Shown piece after piece: positions 34 through 39,332 of a stretch of DNA of 41,822 nucleotides (the first letter of the stretch is position 1; each line of letters begins with the position of its first letter). Where the stretch lies: IMG/VR virus record IMGVR_UViG_3300037313_001383, positions 1-41,822 of that record. One strand, written 5' to 3'. A program made the position numbers and the translations under genes. The stretch is from a virus (taxonomy: Duplodnaviria; Caudoviricetes). Below the pieces are notes generated by a model. That model was given only the letters and a program-made list of their open reading frames with translations, was not told where the DNA came from and did not search any database.

Positions 34-111
34 GTCCCCATCGTCTAGCCCGGTCTAGGACACCACCCTTTCACGGTGAGAACCGGGGTTCGAATCCCCG
101 TGGGGACGCCA
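34..111 (+). tRNA. tRNA-Glu (anticodon TTC), host gene
   Basis: Acceptor stem GTCCCCA/TGGGGAC, anticodon loop CTTTCAC (TTC at 70-72), T-loop GGTTCGAATCC, encoded 3' CCA at 109-111. Confidence 0.95.
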
Positions 112-14962: not shown

Positions 14963-15759
14963 TCCGCACCTCCCGGCTTGAAGACGAAGACGCCCTTGTC
15001 GTTGAACTCGCCGACGCCGCTGTTCTCCAACGCGTCGATCAACCAGTTGCTGCGAATAGTCGGCGACGCCTGCAGGTCCGCGTTGAAGTCGCGCGACTGC
15101 GGCAACAGCACGGTCGATTCGTCCAGCAAGCCCAGCTCGACGGCGTCGGCCCGCGCGACGTCGTGGGTGTCCATCCCCGAGTTGAAATCAAAGGGAGCGT
15201 AAGGGAGGTCGAAGCGCGAGATGCGCCGCCAGATTGGATCGTTCGCCAGCGCGATCATCCGGCCGTCGAAGAACTGCCCGCCGGCCTCGGCCCAGCGTTC
15301 GGCCCAGTCGCGCGGTTTTTCCGAATGGCGAACGCGGATCAGTTCACGCGCGGGCCACTCGTCGAGCACAGCGGGGTCTTGGCCCTGCAGCCATTGGCCG
15401 TAACCGCGCGCGAGTTCGACGTTCGTCTCGATGATGAGATTCAGGCGCTCGTCCGTGCGCAGGTCTTGCAATGTGCCGGCAACGCTCGCGTCGGCGGTGT
15501 AACCTTCGCCGGCAAGGAGCTGCTTCAGCTCGAGCCGGGCCGTCGCTTGGTCGAGCTGCCCGGAAAGGATGCGCTGCACCCGACGGTCAAAGCCGTCGAG
15601 AAACTCGGCGCTGGTGACAGTCGCGGAGAAAATCGCGCGCTCACGCACCGCGGGTTCCAGCGTCGCGAGCTGGGCGGTGTTGCCGGTCGTGCGCAGGATC
15701 GAGCGGATTTCGCGCGACTGCATCGCCTCGGTGAAGGGAAGCGGAGCGGTGAAGTTCAT
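14959..15759 (-). CDS. Head morphogenesis protein (Mu gpF/SPP1 gp7-like)
   Basis: RLNLIIETNVELARGYGQW, PRDW, NDPIW and APFDFNSG motifs. Confidence 0.75.
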   Translation of the reverse strand: MNFTAPLPFTEAMQSREIRSILRTTGNTAQLATLEPAVRERAIFSATVTSAEFLDGFDRRVQRILSGQLDQATARLELKQLLAGEGYTADASVAGTLQDLRTDERLNLIIETNVELARGYGQWLQGQDPAVLDEWPARELIRVRHSEKPRDWAERWAEAGGQFFDGRMIALANDPIWRRISRFDLPYAPFDFNSGMDTHDVARADAVELGLLDESTVLLPQSRDFNADLQASPTIRSNWLIDALENSGVGEFNDKGVFVFKPGGAE

Positions 15760-16454
15760 GCGCTCTTCTCCTTTCGCCGGTGCATCTCTTCGCGGTCTTT
15801 AATGACGACGAAGTCGGCGGGGCCGCCGATCATCGGGAGATCGGGACGGAAAAGCCGCGGCACGTTGTCGATGGCCGGCTCCCACGTCGCCAGTGCCTTG
15901 TCCTGGTCGAGCGCAATCACGATGCCGCGGTCGATGTCACGCAGCACTTGGCGGAATAACCGCACGCCCATCGGCGCGAGTTCGCGAATCCAGAGCGACA
16001 ACGCGGTGTCGTCCGGTCGAATCATGCAGTGCTCCTGCGCAGCGATCGGGCCGCCGTCGACGACGTCGTCGAGCCAGTAGATCGTGCCGCCCGTCACCTT
16101 CTCGCCGAAGCGAATCGCCCACTCGATTGCCGACCGGCCGCGGTGCCGCGGCAGCACCGACGGGTGGAAGCCAATCGCGCCGAGACGGGTTTTGCGGCGC
16201 GTCACGGCGCCCACGAAATCGTGCGAGTGCGCGGCGATGATGAGGTCCGCGCCTTCCGGCATTGTATATTGCGTGAGCTTGCCGCCGGGAATCAGCGGAA
16301 CGCCGGCGTTCTGCGCCGCGATCCACAGCTTGTCCGGCTTGCCGTCCTGGTCGGCTTGCGGGCACGAAACGCCGAGCAGCTCGTCGTCGCGCTCCATCAG
16401 GAGACGCAGCACGTCGGCGCCAAAGCGTTTCTGGCCTGTGAGCACCACGCGCAT
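15756..16454 (-). CDS. Formyltransferase-fold protein (Formyl_trans_N; Fmt/10-formyl-THF hydrolase-like)
   Basis: GFHPSVLPRHRGRSAIEWAI and GGTIYWLDDVVDGGPIAAQ match the HPSLLP-x-RG and D-x-G-P-I folate-binding/catalytic motifs; N-terminal GQxxFGxxV. Confidence 0.88.
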   Translation of the reverse strand: MRVVLTGQKRFGADVLRLLMERDDELLGVSCPQADQDGKPDKLWIAAQNAGVPLIPGGKLTQYTMPEGADLIIAAHSHDFVGAVTRRKTRLGAIGFHPSVLPRHRGRSAIEWAIRFGEKVTGGTIYWLDDVVDGGPIAAQEHCMIRPDDTALSLWIRELAPMGVRLFRQVLRDIDRGIVIALDQDKALATWEPAIDNVPRLFRPDLPMIGGPADFVVIKDREEMHRRKEKSA

Positions 16455-17593
16455 CAGATCTGTTGTCCCTCCGCTGCGCCGATGTATTTGAACCCTTGCA
16501 CGGCCCTGAAATGACCGCCGTAGCCGGTGCCAACGCTGGGCCGGCCGTCACGCGCGCGCGCGGCGTCGATGCTTTGCGCGCTCTTCAGCTTGTTCCCGCC
16601 GTAGAGCACGGCCGACGTCTGGACCCACTTCGGCGAACGGCGCAGCGCGGCGGCAAGGCCGGGGTGTGACGTGTGAAACAGCGTCGGGCACTTGCGGCGC
16701 CACCGGTTCTCTCCGCGCAGCTGCATCTCGCACACGGCGTCGAGAAACCGCGTGCCGACGCCGGCGCCCTGCCACTCGGGCATGACAACAAGGCGGCACG
16801 CCCGCATGTGGCCGGTCTGGAATTTCGGCGACACCGCGACGTGACACACCGGCTCGCCGGCAACGACGCCGACGAAGCACGTGGCCGCGATCATGCGTCC
16901 GAGCTTCAAATAGTGATGCGGCTCGAACATGGGCCAAAATCGCCAATCGGTTTGATGAACCGAGAGCTCGAAGCGCGGGCGTCGCCAAAGCCCCCTTTCC
17001 GTGAATTGGCCCGTTGCGGTGTCTAACACCCAATCGGGTTCAATCCACTCCAGCACGTCGTAGTGACATGAGAGAAGCACGGCTTGGCCGCCTGTCCGGC
17101 GCCACGCCTTCGCGAACGCGTGCGCGCCGACCTTTGCGATCTGACGGTCAACGACGCTCGTGAACTCGTCGATGACGACGCGGTGCGGAAAGTCGCACAG
17201 CACACGCGCGAGACCGGCGCGGAACTGCTCGCCGTTCGACAAGACGTGAAAGGGGCGAAGCCACGCCGGCACGTCTCCGAGGCCGACTGCAGACAGCGCC
17301 GCGGTCGCGGCATCGAACGCACCACCCGGCGCGATGGCGTCGATAATCGGTTTCCGTTCGGGCCAGCCGGCGCGGAGGTCGTGAATCGGCACGCCGTCGA
17401 AAATGCGCGAGCCGCACGACGTCTTGCCGCTGCCGGACGGGCCGACGATGACGCCGATTTTCCAGTCCTGAGTGAACGGCAACTCGAACTCGCGCCGGAA
17501 CTCGTGCCCGCTCTCCACGTTGAAGAGGGACTTCACGCGCGCGGCGCGGTAGCTGGTGAAATCCGCGCAGCTATGTGCGACGCTGATTTTCAT
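16454..17593 (-). CDS. ABC-type ATPase fused to a C-terminal GNAT (Mom-like) acyltransferase
   Basis: Walker A GPSGSGKT, signature LSNGE, Walker B VVIDEF, D-loop SVVD, H-switch LSCH; GNAT motif A RLVVMPEWQGAGVG; no transmembrane partner nearby. Confidence 0.85.
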   Translation of the reverse strand: MKISVAHSCADFTSYRAARVKSLFNVESGHEFRREFELPFTQDWKIGVIVGPSGSGKTSCGSRIFDGVPIHDLRAGWPERKPIIDAIAPGGAFDAATAALSAVGLGDVPAWLRPFHVLSNGEQFRAGLARVLCDFPHRVVIDEFTSVVDRQIAKVGAHAFAKAWRRTGGQAVLLSCHYDVLEWIEPDWVLDTATGQFTERGLWRRPRFELSVHQTDWRFWPMFEPHHYLKLGRMIAATCFVGVVAGEPVCHVAVSPKFQTGHMRACRLVVMPEWQGAGVGTRFLDAVCEMQLRGENRWRRKCPTLFHTSHPGLAAALRRSPKWVQTSAVLYGGNKLKSAQSIDAARARDGRPSVGTGYGGHFRAVQGFKYIGAAEGQQI

Positions 17594-17751
17594 ACGGTGA
17601 CGACCTTCACTTTCCGGGGACCGCGGCGGAGCTTGTTATACATGCGCTCCTGATCGCGCTCGTCCTTGCAGACGACGATGACGCCGAACTGCGGCTTGTA
17701 TTTGAACGACGACTTGCGGGTCGCCGTGACGGGATTCGATGACGCGGGCAT
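17590..17751 (-). CDS. Small accessory protein coupled to the ABC-GNAT gene, 53 aa
   Basis: MPASSN...QFGVIVVCKDERDQERMYNKL...VKVVTV; ATG 2 bp after the gp36 stop; its stop overlaps the ABC-GNAT ATG. Confidence 0.7.
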   Translation of the reverse strand: MPASSNPVTATRKSSFKYKPQFGVIVVCKDERDQERMYNKLRRGPRKVKVVTV

Positions 17752-17753
17752 GG

Positions 17754-18212
17754 TTAGACGCCCTCCTGATCGGCGCGCGTGAAACGGCGGCACTTCGGGG
17801 TGATGCGCGGCGACGCGCTCGCGCCCTGCACCGGCAGCGGGTTCAGCGGAACGTCGGCTTCGTCCACTGGCCACTCGCCTTTGACCAGGGCTTTCAGGCG
17901 CGACTCGTAGGTGTCGGCGTCGCGCTCCTCGTCTTTGTCGAGCGCCTGCTGCAGGCGGCCCTTCATCACGCGCACGACTTTCTTGACGGCGATTTCCTTG
18001 AGGCCGTTGGGAATCGCGGTCGTCGTCGCGTCGAGCACGTAGCGTCCGCTGAACGCAATCGCGTTCCGGACTTCATTCGTCACCTCGGCAATGATACGCG
18101 GCATCGGGTCGGTCTGCCCGGCCGCGAGTGCTTCCTGCCGAAGCGCGTCGACGAGTTCAGCGACTTTGTGGTCGTTGAGATCGCCGGCGGAAATTGTGAA
18201 CCAGTTTGGCAT
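17754..18212 (-). CDS. Head-tail connector (Mu gp36/DUF1320-like)
   Basis: 152 aa, helical, directly after the capsid gene; pattern IIAEVTNEVRNAI...RY...IP...RLKALVKGE. Confidence 0.7.
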   Translation of the reverse strand: MPNWFTISAGDLNDHKVAELVDALRQEALAAGQTDPMPRIIAEVTNEVRNAIAFSGRYVLDATTTAIPNGLKEIAVKKVVRVMKGRLQQALDKDEERDADTYESRLKALVKGEWPVDEADVPLNPLPVQGASASPRITPKCRRFTRADQEGV

Positions 18213-33110: not shown

Positions 33111-33539
33111 ATGATGAACCTCACGCACCAATCGACCATCAGCGAAGCACTGGGCGCGCTCGCGCGCCTTGGAGCCGCGTCGATGAAATACTCCATCAAC
33201 GACGGCAAGGACCGCCCGCTGGCATTCGTGTTCGTAGTCCGCGGGCGGTCGGAATCGGCCGAGTGCGCCGCGGCATTGGACACCGTCGAAGCCGGCTGGA
33301 ATGACGACAATGCGCTCGGCTCTTCCGCTCTGCTTTGGAAGGACGCAGCGAAGGAGCTGCCCGACGACAACACGCGCGTCATGTTCGCGTGTCGCGACAC
33401 CGACGAGCCGGGCTGCGGATATCACGAGGACGGCCGCTGGTTCTACGATAACGACGAGGCGGTGCGCGATCCGCACCCGGTCTACGCATGGGCGCACGTG
33501 CCAGCGCTGCCGCCCGCGAAGAAGGGAGGCCGCTCGTGA
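33111..33539 (+). CDS. Hypothetical protein with DUF551-like C-terminus
   Basis: WKDAAKELPDD...GRW...VYAWAHVPALP; GAGGAGG RBS. Confidence 0.62.
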   Translation: MMNLTHQSTISEALGALARLGAASMKYSINDGKDRPLAFVFVVRGRSESAECAAALDTVEAGWNDDNALGSSALLWKDAAKELPDDNTRVMFACRDTDEPGCGYHEDGRWFYDNDEAVRDPHPVYAWAHVPALPPAKKGGRS

Positions 33540-33907
33540 AGATCGACCAGCTGAACATGACCTTCCCCGGCGAAGGCGACATGTCGCTCGTGATCGCCAC
33601 CGACGACCACGGCACGATGCTCGGCACGGTTTGCGTGAAGCGCGCGGGCGCCCACGTCGCGGAGTTCGCGCGCCTGTTCGTGCGTGAGGGAATCCGCCGT
33701 CAGGGTATCGGCCGCGCGCTGATCAACCGCGCCGTCGAGGTCGCCGAGAAGGCCGGTTGCGGCGCCATCTCGTGCGCCGTTCACCCGAACAACAAGGCCG
33801 CGTTCTGGTTCTACACGCGCCTCGGTTTCACCGCCGCGTTTCATTTCGGCGACGGCGACATCCTCATGACCCGGCCGGTCTCGGCCGCGACGCTCACTCG
33901 GTCATGA
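33536..33907 (+). CDS. GNAT N-acetyltransferase
   Basis: RLFVREGIRRQGIGRALI (motif A) and NKAAFWFYTRLGF (motif B). Confidence 0.88.
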   Translation: MKIDQLNMTFPGEGDMSLVIATDDHGTMLGTVCVKRAGAHVAEFARLFVREGIRRQGIGRALINRAVEVAEKAGCGAISCAVHPNNKAAFWFYTRLGFTAAFHFGDGDILMTRPVSAATLTRS

Positions 33908-35982: not shown

Positions 35983-36471
35983 ATGAAACCAGCCGAGATC
36001 GAAGCCGTGCTGCAGCGCCGGGGCTGCACCATCGTTGAGGATGGCGGCAAGTTCGCGCTGGTGTATCCGCACGGCTACGAAGGCCGGCCGCGCACCAAGG
36101 ACCTTCTCGCAACGAAGCGCGAGTCGGCTGCGCTTGAGTCGTGGCTCTGGTTGCACCCGGACCTCGTCGATGACCGCGGCATCGACACGGTGAAAAAGAT
36201 CGTGGCGGCGGACTACCGTCTGTCAGTCGAGCAGCTCGTCGCCAAAGACCGGAGCGAACCGCTGGCCACTGCCCGCCGAATCGCGATGGCGCTGTCGCGT
36301 GAGCTGACGGGCGCAACCCTCGAAGTGATCGGCACGGCGTTCGGCGGGCGCGATCACGGCACCGTGATTCACGCGCGCGACTCGCTCGTTGCCCAGTGCG
36401 ACACCGACGCGGCGCTGGCCGCCCGTCTTGGCACGCTGCGCGTCGCGTGCGCCGCCGCTCTCCTCACATGA
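35983..36471 (+). CDS. Protein with DnaA domain IV (Bac_DnaA_C) HTH
   Basis: ARRIAMALSRELTGATLEVIGTAFGGRDHGTVIHA closely matches the DnaA signature (IG-x-x-FGGRDHTTV-x-HA); no AAA+ domain. Confidence 0.88.
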   Translation: MKPAEIEAVLQRRGCTIVEDGGKFALVYPHGYEGRPRTKDLLATKRESAALESWLWLHPDLVDDRGIDTVKKIVAADYRLSVEQLVAKDRSEPLATARRIAMALSRELTGATLEVIGTAFGGRDHGTVIHARDSLVAQCDTDAALAARLGTLRVACAAALLT

Positions 36472-36902
36472 GGGCTATCTCGTTACATCAGCCCTACGCG
36501 TCGGCCGTCGCTCTGGGACTCAAGCGGAACGAGACGCGCCACTGGTCCACGAACTACCGCGGGCCGCTGGCGATCCACGCGGCGGCGCGGAACGATCGGC
36601 AAACGCGCCGCGTGTTCGAGGACATCGTGACGACGTGCCACCGCGCCACCTACGAGCTGCTCGACGCCGCGTGCGAGTGCGATTTCGACCGACTGCCGTT
36701 CGGCGCCTACGTCTGCACCTGCGTCCTGGTCGATTGCGTGCGGGTCGAGGATTTGCGCCGCGTCCGGGCGCTCACCGCGACGGAACGCCTTTTCGGAAAC
36801 TACGCTCCCGGCCGCTTCGTGTGGCTGCTGGATAACATCAAACAACTCCCCGAGCCGATCCCCGCGAAGGGCCGGCAGGGCTTCTGGACATGGGAAAAGT
36901 AA
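36468..36902 (+). CDS. ASCH domain protein
   Basis: AISLHQPYA...GLKRNETRHWSTNYRGPLAIHA...PIPAKGRQGFW. Confidence 0.9.
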   Translation: MRAISLHQPYASAVALGLKRNETRHWSTNYRGPLAIHAAARNDRQTRRVFEDIVTTCHRATYELLDAACECDFDRLPFGAYVCTCVLVDCVRVEDLRRVRALTATERLFGNYAPGRFVWLLDNIKQLPEPIPAKGRQGFWTWEK

Positions 36903-37732
36903 CTCAAATCGGATGGACGCATCACACGTTCAACATCGTGTGGGGCTGCACAATTTGGTCGGAGGAATGCCGCAACTGCTATGCCAAGGAATGGGCTGAA
37001 CGCCTCGGCTTTGACGTGTGGGGCCAGAATGCGTCGCGCCGCGTGTTCGGCGAGGAGCACTGGCGCGAGCCGCTCGCGTGGAACAAGGCCGCGGAGAAAG
37101 CGGGCCAGCGCCGCCGCGTGTTTTGTTCGTCCATGGCCGACGTGTTCGAGGATCACCCCATGGTTCACGAGGAGCGGAAGAAGCTCTGGCCTCTGATCGC
37201 CGCGACGCCGTGGCTCGACTGGCTGCTTCTCACCAAGCGGCCGGAGAACGCCGACTGGATGACGCCGCGCAACGGTTGGGCCACGGCCGAGTGCCCTTGG
37301 TGGACGTGGCCGCGCAACGCGTGGCTGGGTTTCACCGGCGGCACGCAGGAGACCTTCGACGAGCGGTGGCAGACGGTCGAGAACGTCGGCCGCGCCCGCC
37401 ATATCCCGGTCTTATTCTGCTCGATGGAGCCGATGCTTGAGCGCATCAACATCGAGGCCGCGCTCGACCAGTTCTGCGACGACGTTGAACTTCGCACGCT
37501 CGACTGGCTGATCATCGGCGGCGAGAGCGGCAAGAAGGCGCGCCCGTTCGAGCTGAATTGGATCGGCGACATTCTCAAGCAGCTCGATGGCCTCTCCGTC
37601 CCGGTCTACGTGAAGCAGCTCGGGGCGAAGCCGACGTTGCTGGGCCACCCGTTGACGTTCGAGCACCCGAAGGGCGAAGACTCGAGCGAATGGCCGTGCG
37701 CGTATCGGCGGCAGGAGTTTCCCCGGTCATGA
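36890..37732 (+). CDS. DUF5131 (phage gp37/gp68-like, radical SAM-related) protein
   Basis: IGWTHHTFNIVWGCTIWSEECRNCYA, RVFCSSMADVF, WLLLTKRP, SMEPML, DWLIIGGESG, YVKQLG. Confidence 0.9.
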   Translation: MGKVTQIGWTHHTFNIVWGCTIWSEECRNCYAKEWAERLGFDVWGQNASRRVFGEEHWREPLAWNKAAEKAGQRRRVFCSSMADVFEDHPMVHEERKKLWPLIAATPWLDWLLLTKRPENADWMTPRNGWATAECPWWTWPRNAWLGFTGGTQETFDERWQTVENVGRARHIPVLFCSMEPMLERINIEAALDQFCDDVELRTLDWLIIGGESGKKARPFELNWIGDILKQLDGLSVPVYVKQLGAKPTLLGHPLTFEHPKGEDSSEWPCAYRRQEFPRS

Positions 37733-38067
37733 GCGCGCCGAAAGATCATCGGGCGCTGTGGCAGCCCAAATTCCCCGCGGTCGCGAAGCAGTGTGCCTCC
37801 TGCCCGTTCCGTATCGGCAACGACAAAGAGTTCGGCGAAGTGATCCGCCGGCTGCGCGTGAAATTCGGGATGCCGTCAAAGGTTCACGCGGAAGACATCC
37901 GGCACGCCCGGTTTTGTGTCCGCATGGACGCCGAGCACGGCGACTTCGTTTGTCACCACACCGCCTACGACGGCGAAATGAACAACCGGCCGGTCACGGA
38001 CTATCGGCAATGCGCCGGTGCGACGGAGGCCTTTCGGGCGCGCGTGGCAGGCGCCAACAAAAAGTGA
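37729..38067 (+). CDS. Cys/His-rich hypothetical protein (putative Zn-binding)
   Basis: QCASCPFR...FVCHHT...QCAGA. Confidence 0.65.
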   Translation: MSAPKDHRALWQPKFPAVAKQCASCPFRIGNDKEFGEVIRRLRVKFGMPSKVHAEDIRHARFCVRMDAEHGDFVCHHTAYDGEMNNRPVTDYRQCAGATEAFRARVAGANKK

Positions 38068-39332
38068 TCGCGCCGAAAGTCATCAAACTCGCCGATCTGT
38101 TTTGCGGCGCCGGCGGCACGTCGTCGGGCGCCGTCGAGGCAATCGCCGCGCTCGGCTACCGCGCCGAGCTTACCGCGATCAACCACTGGGACGTCGCCAT
38201 CGCGACGCACTCGACGAACCACCCCGACGCACGCCATCTCTGCACGGCAGTCGACGACGTAAACCCGCGCTCGCTTTATCGCGAAGGCGAACTCGACCTG
38301 CTGTGGGCCAGCCCGGAGTGCACGCACCACAGCACGGCGCGCGCGGGCCGCCCGATTAACGAGCAAAGCCGCGCGACGGCGCATTGCGTCACACGCTGGG
38401 CCGAGGCGCTCCGGCCGCCGGCGATCCTCGTCGAGAACGTCCCGGCCTTCTCGACGTGGGGACCGATTGGCACCAACAACCGCCCGCTGAAGAGCAGGAA
38501 GGGCGAAACCTTTCAGGCGTGGCTCCATCTGCTCCGCGCCCTCGGCTACACCGTAGACTATCGCGTGCTGTGCGCCGCCGACTACGGCGACCCGACGACG
38601 CGCGAGCGGCTGTTCGTCCAGGCTGTGCGCGGCCGGCGCCGGATTGTGTGGCCGGATGCGACTCACGCGGCAAACACCGAGGCCGACTTGTTCGGCCCGT
38701 CGGATCGCAAACCGTGGGTTCCGGTCCGTGACGTGATCGACTGGTCGATTCCGATTCACAGCATCAACGGGCGGAAACGTCCCCTTGCTGAAAACACGCT
38801 CCAGCGGATCGAAGAAGGTCTGCGCGAATATGGTGGCGCGGCGATCATCGCGATGGAGCACGGCGGGCGGGCGCTTCCGCTGACGGCGCCCTTGCCGACC
38901 ATCACGTGCGCGAAAGGCGGCGCGTTTGGCATCGCCTACATTTTGCCGCAGCAGAGCGGCGGAAAACTGCGTCCGGTCAGCGAACCGGCGCCCACTATCG
39001 CCACGTCCGGCGCCCTCGCGCTGATTGTCGAATACTACGGCAAGGGCGTCGTCCGGCCGGTGACGGAGCCGCTGCCCACGATCACGACCGTCGACCGGTT
39101 CGGCCTGATCGTCGCGAACGGCGGCGACGTGTTGTTCCGCATGCTGCGGCCGAAGGAGCTGGCGGCGGCAATGAGCTTCCGGCCGACCTTCAAATTCACC
39201 GGCAACTACAAGGCCGTGACGAAGCAGATCGGAAACGCCGTGCCGCGCCGGATGGCGCGCGCGTTGTGCGCCGCGGTTCTTTCGCAGCGTTCAGACGTGC
39301 GCGATCTACTCGAAGACAAGGAGGCCGCGTGA
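38064..39332 (+). CDS. DNA cytosine-5 methyltransferase (orphan)
   Basis: Motif I DLFCGAGG, IV SPECT, VI ENV, VIII PTTRERLF, X QIGNAVP; repeated PLPTIT segments. Confidence 0.93.
   Translation: MIAPKVIKLADLFCGAGGTSSGAVEAIAALGYRAELTAINHWDVAIATHSTNHPDARHLCTAVDDVNPRSLYREGELDLLWASPECTHHSTARAGRPINEQSRATAHCVTRWAEALRPPAILVENVPAFSTWGPIGTNNRPLKSRKGETFQAWLHLLRALGYTVDYRVLCAADYGDPTTRERLFVQAVRGRRRIVWPDATHAANTEADLFGPSDRKPWVPVRDVIDWSIPIHSINGRKRPLAENTLQRIEEGLREYGGAAIIAMEHGGRALPLTAPLPTITCAKGGAFGIAYILPQQSGGKLRPVSEPAPTIATSGALALIVEYYGKGVVRPVTEPLPTITTVDRFGLIVANGGDVLFRMLRPKELAAAMSFRPTFKFTGNYKAVTKQIGNAVPRRMARALCAAVLSQRSDVRDLLEDKEAA

Follow-up and report, generated by a model that had tools for sequence, protein, structure and literature searches.

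We propose that three overlapping minus-strand genes, part of a transposable phage's head operon, encode a late-acting enzyme system for acylating a base of phage DNA once it has been replicated, with an acyl group that is probably a formyl delivered via formyl-CoA, a tentative reading to which we give a probability of about 0.42. The genes lie in a stretch of 41,822 nucleotides (IMG/VR record IMGVR_UViG_3300037313_001383), which is here called the window, and are the following:

17590..17751, minus strand: 53-aa gene, assigned as a C-terminal domain that has become detached from a ParB-like partner, and a likely adaptor for the ATPase
16454..17593, minus strand: 379-aa ABC ATPase (about residues 1-200) fused to a GNAT acyltransferase (about residues 205-375), from PHROG, Pfam, motifs, AF2 and fold searches
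15756..16454, minus strand: 232-aa formyltransferase, with the N-terminal domain of 10-formyl-THF dehydrogenase (FDH) as nearest relative

The three-gene cassette is confirmed to be real, as first described. The cassette is conserved and its overlapping reading frames are those claimed, with 4 nt shared between the 53-aa and ABC genes, 1 nt between the ABC and formyltransferase genes and 4 nt with the following gene, and with a gap of 2 nt to the preceding gene. The proteins match PHROGs 11143, 9240 and 28816, and in comparison to locus L089 the codon changes are mostly synonymous in both the 53-aa gene (13 synonymous, 8 non-synonymous) and the formyltransferase gene (78 and 27), which indicates that the cassette genes are more than chance reading frames. 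Contigs from one sequencing run are identical to the window over 15700-17800, and a sequence from a second study matches 16739-17449, spanning the ABC/GNAT junction. The cassette was said to be wedged between gp36-like and gpF-like genes; the head operon stands, but the labels are weak, since the gpF-like gene matches a minor head PHROG at E 4e-4 and the other flanking gene gave no named family in profile scans of the window proteins. A recent insertion of foreign GC content was rejected, as the cassette has the same GC as its flanks (0.64-0.68).

The first-pass annotation described a soluble ABC ATPase with all canonical motifs, and the soluble ATPase holds, with Walker A (GPSGSGKT, residues 51-58), Walker B (DE, 142-143), D149 and the H-loop H177, but the signature is a variant (LSNGE, 118-122) and no Q-loop was identified. 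The motifs present are invariant or nearly so among 118 diverse relatives. That no permease accompanies it was borne out by profile scans of the window proteins, and the reading as an ABC transporter was discarded, as it has no permease partner and the only conserved neighbours are the three cassette genes and the terminase. The GNAT domain matches PF00583 (E 5e-5, passing the cut-off) and the whole protein matches phrog_11143 (E 4.5e-149). The AF2 model, with a pLDDT of 85 for the full protein and 89 for the GNAT alone, has ABC and GNAT folds. Matches to the full-length model were filled by ABC domains, and a fold search with the GNAT model gave acetyltransferases of a generic kind that act on proteins and small molecules (RimI, SpeG, Naa50; Z 12-14), none of them standing out. 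Atlas matches of the GNAT are all below 0.9 (NodA 0.82, a Mom-bearing cluster 0.79) and are leads only.

An ABC-coupled GNAT has already been predicted as a DNA-nucleobase acylation system (Iyer et al. 2013, as cited in a passage of PMC7824862), and the system can thus not be called new, as was first thought. From its architecture, which is the same, we place the window protein in this family; Tenacibaculum phage pT24 is named in that passage and holds a homologue (H56, E 2e-38), presumably the gene that is meant there. The passage on the ABC-coupled GNAT makes no mention of a formyltransferase, a ParB or a frameshift. We found no experimental study of the family, its formyltransferase or its frameshift in the literature, part of which may be covered by Iyer 2013 and Krishnan 2020. 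The family is predicted in that passage to acylate a DNA base. It comprises 7,779 of the 7,999 scored candidates and is estimated to be found in about 4,700 IMG/VR stretches. It is also present in cultured phages of laboratory hosts; Gordonia phage Sisko and Pseudomonas phage Komp_PAO1_1 (grown on PAO1) carry it together with the formyltransferase, Lactococcus phage P335 without.

The GNAT had been compared with Mom of phage Mu, but membership of the Mom family was rejected. None of 70 GNAT domains matches the Mom profile PF25680 at E up to 1 (Mu Mom itself gives 2e-75), and hhalign of the GNAT against Mom gives a probability of 0.2%. Neither Mom (8BV8) nor TmcA is among the 50 matches listed for the GNAT-model fold search. 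A scan of the window's own record with PF25680 gave no match, though the controls gave none either, and tblastn found no Mom, in line with the earlier statement that a stand-alone mom gene is lacking at the tail end. In Mom, which likewise has a GNAT fold, H58, Y59 and R111 matter (PMC13219725); H227, Y228 and R267 of the window protein may form a similar His-Tyr/Arg pattern, as by eye, with no significant alignment, they fall at the same topological places. Among the 118 diverse relatives R267 and Y228 are kept in all and H227 in 116. The pair is His-Tyr in the window and in the distant clade. In the near clade, which has the formyltransferase, 86% of 59 rows have Tyr-Tyr, and the NAT10-like His is thus not general there. 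Mu Mom takes Gly-tRNA as donor and works without an ATPase, whereas the window protein has an ABC domain and a canonical QGxGxG CoA loop that is present throughout the relatives and suggests an acyl-CoA rather than Gly-tRNA as donor.

The cytidine N4-acetyltransferases TmcA/NAT10 are a further parallel in that they likewise combine an NTPase with a GNAT and have an acyl-CoA loop. They may also share the His-Tyr that follows the first helix and the Arg of strand 4, again with positions equated by eye. In these enzymes the His-Tyr pair is catalytic and ATP is needed (PMC13433802). Their profile PF13718 matches 20 of 70 GNAT domains weakly (best E 0.002). TmcA itself matches both the helicase-like PF05127 and the tRNA-binding domain; both are missing from the phage-borne window protein, the NTPase of which is an ABC ATPase and the substrate of which is presumed to be DNA. 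RNA is the substrate of those characterised ATP-dependent base acyltransferases that come nearest, which could mean that tRNA, mRNA or a free nucleotide is the target here and that host translation or signalling is altered late in infection. We regard this as quite improbable, as no RNA-binding domain was detected and DNA is what the association with ParB and terminase points to.

A gene of the 53-aa type is found 5' of the ABC gene in 111/114 loci, and in 89 of 104 loci the domain is joined to an N-terminal domain of ParB-like type. Single chains of ParB domain, ABC and GNAT make up 9 of 150 library representatives. From these comparisons and its match to phrog_28816 we identify the 53-aa protein as a C-terminal domain split off a ParB-like partner, likely serving as adaptor for the ATPase. 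A Com-like role was ruled out, since the product is a ParB C-terminal domain. The ParB-like partner matches the same PHROGs as phage ParB-methyltransferases, and a phage ParB has been shown to activate a DNA-modifying dioxygenase (PMC13229309). The T-dioxygenases of that study likewise have a ParB-like partner adjoining the DNA-modifying enzyme, often near the terminase, but the enzyme is a different one and both ParB domains are needed, whereas the window keeps only the C-terminal domain.

The late, packaging-linked placement inside the head operon was read correctly from the start, and in 26 of 48 locus groups terminase is one of the two genes that follow. The cassette of phiE255, Komp_PAO1_1 and a Porphyromonas phage sits at the end of the tail operon, the slot in which Mu keeps com-mom, so that in transposable phages relatives of the window cassette occupy the place of Mom. 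DNA as the target, as first suggested, is the leading reading from the ParB partner, the mom slot and the terminase context. A protein target, where the terminase, virion proteins or a host defence protein would be acylated or formylated, draws on the position among head and terminase genes, on the protein and small-molecule N-acetyltransferases that are the top structural neighbours of the GNAT, and on an "acr candidate" label given to the small gene by one depositor, which is annotation only. We hold it to be unlikely, since acylation of nucleic acid would agree with the ParB partner, the place in the mom slot, the His-Tyr/Arg pattern and the dependence on ATP, and unrelated terminase types and host phyla share the cassette.

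The formyltransferase matches Formyl_trans_N (PF00551) at E 4e-20. Its best solved relative is the N-domain of FDH (E 1e-27; next family 2e-14), a profile comparison gives the same order (1e-49 against 2e-30), and a quick tree with 40 rows places it beside FDH (SH-aLRT 98) and away from Fmt, ArnA and PurN. The residues H97 (58/58), S99 (invariant) and D133 (57/58) are kept, but the Asn that stands two residues before the catalytic His in E. coli PurN, Fmt and ArnA is found in none of the 58 sequences, the window having Gly95. The FDH (ALDH1L1) N-terminal domain and HypX likewise have the His-Ser-Asp triad without Asn and belong to the same clade. In FDH this domain puts a formyl on the thiol of phosphopantetheine, and HypX is a proposed maker of formyl-CoA (PMC6802093). 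Only the first 200 or so residues match (FDH 1-201), the C-terminal subdomain, ACP and dehydrogenase domains are missing, and the window enzyme is instead paired with a GNAT. Longer forms of the formyltransferase number 32 by profile search and none by single-sequence search, which missed even FDH. Because of the kinship with the thiol-formylating domain, transfer to a pantetheine thiol is suggested, and a supply of formyl-CoA to the GNAT is a likelier role of the enzyme than the capping of an amine.

A path in two steps had been the first proposal, with the GNAT adding an aminoacyl group to the base and the formyltransferase capping its amine, as DpdN is proposed to do for preQ1. It has a precedent in fdPreQ1 and the predicted DpdN (10.1101/2023.04.13.536721), and optional capping would account for a clade-limited formyltransferase. 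DpdN is however co-encoded with DpdA and the FolE-to-QueF genes, none of which was found among the window proteins scanned, and the GNAT has a CoA loop and not the arrangement of Mom. Because the formyltransferase has thiol-formylating kin and lacks the Asn of amine formyltransferases, and no amine-making gene is conserved near the cassette in the neighbourhood survey, this chemistry is not supported, and we think it very doubtful.

Co-occurrence of the formyltransferase with the ABC-GNAT had been set beforehand as a test, and the outcome does not refute the first reading: it follows the ABC-GNAT in 105 of 117 near loci. It does so in 0 of 82 distant loci, and is thus confined to one clade and not part of the cassette core. 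In eight related Bacillota/Spirochaetia rows it is lost and the GNAT is little changed. These absences, the canonical CoA loop throughout the GNATs, and a cellular relative (P0278) in which the formyltransferase is joined to ACT domains, like the hydrolase PurU, are what could be expected if the GNAT of every clade used acetyl-CoA to acetylate a DNA base and the formyltransferase were an accessory folate enzyme, a 10-formyl-THF hydrolase or similar, tuning one-carbon pools or handling a side product. The tight translational coupling in the 105 near loci, one ABC-GNAT-formyltransferase single chain (P0277; one sequence from one contig) and the strongly conserved GNAT features that the formyltransferase clade has of its own speak against it, and we consider it improbable.

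The junction of ABC and GNAT holds a second layer of coding, with two features:

16988..16999, minus strand: candidate +1 frameshift site, with a weak SD-like hexamer (16999-16994), a 3-nt spacer and CTT of Leu202 (16990-16988)
16906..16986, minus strand: conserved +1 frame over the GNAT start, with 26 codons before its stop, at which a product of about 228 aa with the ATPase alone would end

The stop of the +1 frame falls at the same codon in all 63 genes, the window included (24.4 expected), and the frame is open in 62 of the 63 (31.2 expected). Both were replicated in distant genes (63/64 and 64/64), and the overlap region is the sole stop-free +1 stretch of the ABC-GNAT gene. The junction is dual-coded, and the second frame is under selection. 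The same site layout with a stronger SD is seen in 20 of 40 in-frame relatives against 6 of 13,529 background codons; the hexamer of the window scores 4/6, below the cut-off used. No RNA structure was found at the junction of the window (z -0.16). Sequencing error as the cause of the split relatives was rejected, as 19 distinct junctions have the same place and frame. It is likely, judging from these patterns, that an ATPase-only protein is made alongside the fusion by a programmed frame slip. The CUU, SD and 3-nt spacer of the in-frame members resemble the +1 recoding of prfB (RF2), and the A-run of the -1 members, with long and short ATPase subunits, the -1 recoding of dnaX, but this family uses both slip directions for the same two products.

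In the acylation machine that we propose, the formyltransferase would charge the CoA thiol with a formyl taken from 10-formyl-THF, and from the resulting formyl-CoA the GNAT would hand it on to an exocyclic amine of a DNA base, for which TmcA/NAT10 suggest cytosine N4 as a first guess. The ABC domain could use ATP to clamp, travel along or open duplex DNA, and the 53-aa protein may be a docking or activating domain left from the ParB-like partner. Slipping of the frame in the linker would give an ATPase-only subunit and an ATPase-GNAT fusion, and the ratio of the two would probably leave fewer catalytic domains per ATPase dimer or oligomer. The likely purpose would be to shield the DNA from host nucleases ahead of packaging. 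Acyl groups on adenine N6 are unstable according to PMC13219725, and an N-formyl base may be labile too, which counts against the proposal. More doubtful than the machine itself is the wider picture, in which thousands of phages would carry a TmcA/NAT10-type ATP-driven DNA base N-acyltransferase, with short and long subunits made by a frameshift whose direction switched in the course of evolution, and one clade would have recruited an ancestor-like FDH domain, making formyl-CoA and writing labile N-formyl bases (e.g. N4-formylcytosine) that would escape standard nucleoside work-ups.

The ParB origin of the small gene, the formyl-CoA reading and the dual-coded junction are corrections to the first reading, which had neither the first nor the last of these. 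The ABC-GNAT family is common and predicted in print. If our reading is true, simple N-acyl bases, acetyl or formyl, would join the list of DNA modifications, host folate pools would be linked to phage protection, and the family would offer a new source of formyl-CoA as well as a natural case of two-way recoding that sets a subunit ratio.

The window is an entire virus record, and by its predicted genes the phage is a transposable one, with a Mu-type portal and protease as well as a transposase, a transposition ATPase and Gam. The three coupled genes that the first-pass annotation had read as an ABC ATPase with GNAT domain, a formyltransferase and a small companion were borne out by the open reading frames, Pfam and PHROGs:

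Genes of the cassette
17751-17590, minus strand, small gene (53 aa; ORF call, coupled)
17593-16454, minus strand, ABC-GNAT gene (379 aa; ORF call; ABC and GNAT in Pfam and PHROGs)
16454-15756, minus strand, formyltransferase gene (232 aa; ORF call; Formyl_trans_N in Pfam and PHROGs)

Synonymous change is in excess for the small gene and the formyltransferase in a codon comparison with the nearest relative. Public contigs match the cassette stretch, and the ABC/GNAT junction is also matched in a second study. The closest relatives (91% and 85%) come from MAGs of Opitutaceae and Verrucomicrobia and carry the cassette in the identical slot with other insertions adjoining, which makes the slot a head-operon site for variable cargo. 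The extra genes flanking it on either side differ between these relatives (L089:3574-5841, L090:7838-8410). The record has a tRNA-Glu(TTC) at its extreme end (34-111, plus strand), probably host flank of the prophage. The early region holds a second, ordinary stand-alone GNAT (33488-33907, plus strand; PF00583, E 6e-17). An ASCH-domain protein (36396-36902, plus strand; PF04266) is encoded directly upstream of a DUF5131 gene (36890-37732) and a C5 cytosine methyltransferase gene (37758-39332); some ASCH proteins hydrolyse N4-acylated cytosines.

Loci fetched with the window protein (80 viral and 37 genome loci, in 48 loose groups) have the small domain upstream of ABC-GNAT in 111 of the 114 with sufficient flank; in 105 of 117 (41/48 groups) the formyltransferase follows downstream, so that the three genes do co-occur across phages, a check that had been proposed from the sequence. 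Terminase follows within two further genes in 26 of the 48 groups, two of these without any downstream gene scanned. The cassette closes the tail operon in three transposable phages, which is the position of com-mom in Mu. One subclade has, in place of the formyltransferase, a protein of 61-72 aa with no known PHROG (L023:6137-6355; also L009, L020, L024, L048, L100, L101, L106, L109 and L125). A distant search, its query an alignment built from 71 diverse representatives, gave 107 loci, of which 89 were kept (L129-L217), the others being weak or partial; two distant loci without the His-Tyr motif were dropped, both falling in the formyltransferase clade with the partner not scored. A ParB or small domain stands upstream in 74/75 distant loci, and a downstream formyltransferase in 0/82. 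In a quick tree built from 155 GNAT domains the 59 formyltransferase-linked rows all lie on the same side of a long branch with support 100; one loss, of eight rows, is seen inside that clade. The core is therefore the ParB tail with ABC-GNAT, and the formyltransferase a clade-specific add-on.

The ABC-GNAT gene is in frame in 88 of 121 loci, while GNAT lies in the -1 frame in 32 and in +1 in one. An AAAAAA(G/A) run occurs in 18 of 19 distinct -1 junctions against 12/425 background windows; 11 of the 19 have a stop immediately upstream of the run in the GNAT frame, and 12 lack a start codon downstream of it. Half of the distinct in-frame junctions (20/40) have a Shine-Dalgarno-like (SD) hexamer, three bases and CTT/CCC, as against 6 of 13,529 background codons. 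These signals presumably resemble those of prfB and dnaX. The other frame has a stop at the Leu229 codon in 63/63 non-redundant genes including the window (24.4 expected from codon usage), and is open from the linker in 62/63 (31.2 expected). Among 41 in-frame genes, no other +1 stretch is free of stops (0 stops here, 29.0 expected; 0.58-1.92 of expectation elsewhere), and none has a stronger stop excess. The distant set replicates the stop (63/64) and the open frame (64/64), with the SD motif in 34/64. Shared ancestry inflates the junction counts; even so, the control within the gene favours selection on the second frame. Either layout would give the same pair of proteins. In the window copy CTT, open frame and stop are retained but the SD is weak (4 of 6), so that a slip there is no more than likely. 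At Phe223, TTT is strongly favoured (37/41, 19.7 expected), which shows up as an excess of +2-frame stops, and the window has TTC (16924-16927); TTT would retain Leu in the +1-frame tail, a hint of selection on the tail peptide. ABC and GNAT are also in two pieces in relatives from Lactococcus P335, Oenococcus and Streptococcus phages, annotated as ABC transporters (L086; search hits H25-H28, H38-H55).

In 89 of 104 loci the small domain is fused to a ParB-like protein as its C-terminal domain. This partner matches the PHROGs to which phage ParB proteins and ParB-methyltransferases belong, and nine of 150 library representatives join ParB, small domain, ABC and GNAT in a single chain. A thymine dioxygenase is activated on dsDNA by a phage ParB of broadly this kind (PMC13229309). 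We infer that the small protein is an adaptor.

The GNAT domain is not Mom, with which the first-pass annotation had suggested comparing it (hhalign 0.2%; PF25680 matched by 0/70 GNAT domains). Its CoA loop is canonical, Arg267 is invariant, and the first helix is followed by the pair His227-Tyr228; matched by eye, Mu Mom and E. coli TmcA have His-Tyr and Arg in the same topological places. In NAT10 the His-Tyr pair is catalytic (PMC13433802), and in Mom these residues matter (PMC13219725). The TmcA/NAT10 profile is weakly matched by 20 of the 70 domains, and NAT10 is among the solved-structure matches at E 0.3. Against a TmcA/NAT10-like enzyme, fold searches return generic acetyltransferases, and 86% of the formyltransferase clade have Tyr at position 227, with an invariant His226 instead. 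One ABC-GNAT relative, P0198, has an intein-like Hint domain and a LAGLIDADG endonuclease upstream of the matched part.

Among solved proteins the formyltransferase is by far closest to 10-formyl-THF dehydrogenase (FDH), in the N-terminal domain of the latter; a quick tree (40 rows, including 20 of 58 phage sequences) unites it and FDH with support 98. The two share a His-Ser-Asp triad, whereas the Asn of E. coli PurN, Fmt and ArnA is missing. In FDH a phosphopantetheine thiol receives the formyl, and for HypX an FDH-like synthesis of formyl-CoA is proposed (PMC6802093 for both). Given this kinship, the neighbouring acyl-CoA-using GNAT and the lone sequence with ABC, GNAT and formyltransferase in one chain (P0277), the simplest reading is that the enzyme would supply formyl-CoA as donor rather than cap an amine, as had been supposed. 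A hydrolase is an alternative that we keep alive since a relative with ACT domains exists (P0278, 422 aa, 58 members), in which these are fused to a phage-clade formyltransferase in a PurU-like layout with a catalytic domain of the FDH type. DpdN, also from phages, is a formyltransferase with a predicted role in fdPreQ1 (bioRxiv 2023.04.13.536721), but no deazaguanine genes were seen among the window proteins scanned.

The cassette is a real, conserved system, although not a new one as first proposed, since an ABC-coupled GNAT adding an uncharacterised acyl group to a DNA base was already predicted in outline (PMC7824862), and the phage named there carries a homologue. Experimental work on the family was not found in the literature searched, the coverage of which excluded the primary prediction papers. 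Overall, DNA is the fairly probable target. Our best full reading, with a probability of roughly 0.4, is that ABC-GNAT would acylate a base driven by ATP, that the formyltransferase would probably feed it formyl-CoA, and that the frameshift would set two subunit forms. The advance over the earlier prediction is that the mechanism is narrowed to ATP-driven base acylation, a probable formyl-CoA feed and frameshift-set subunits.
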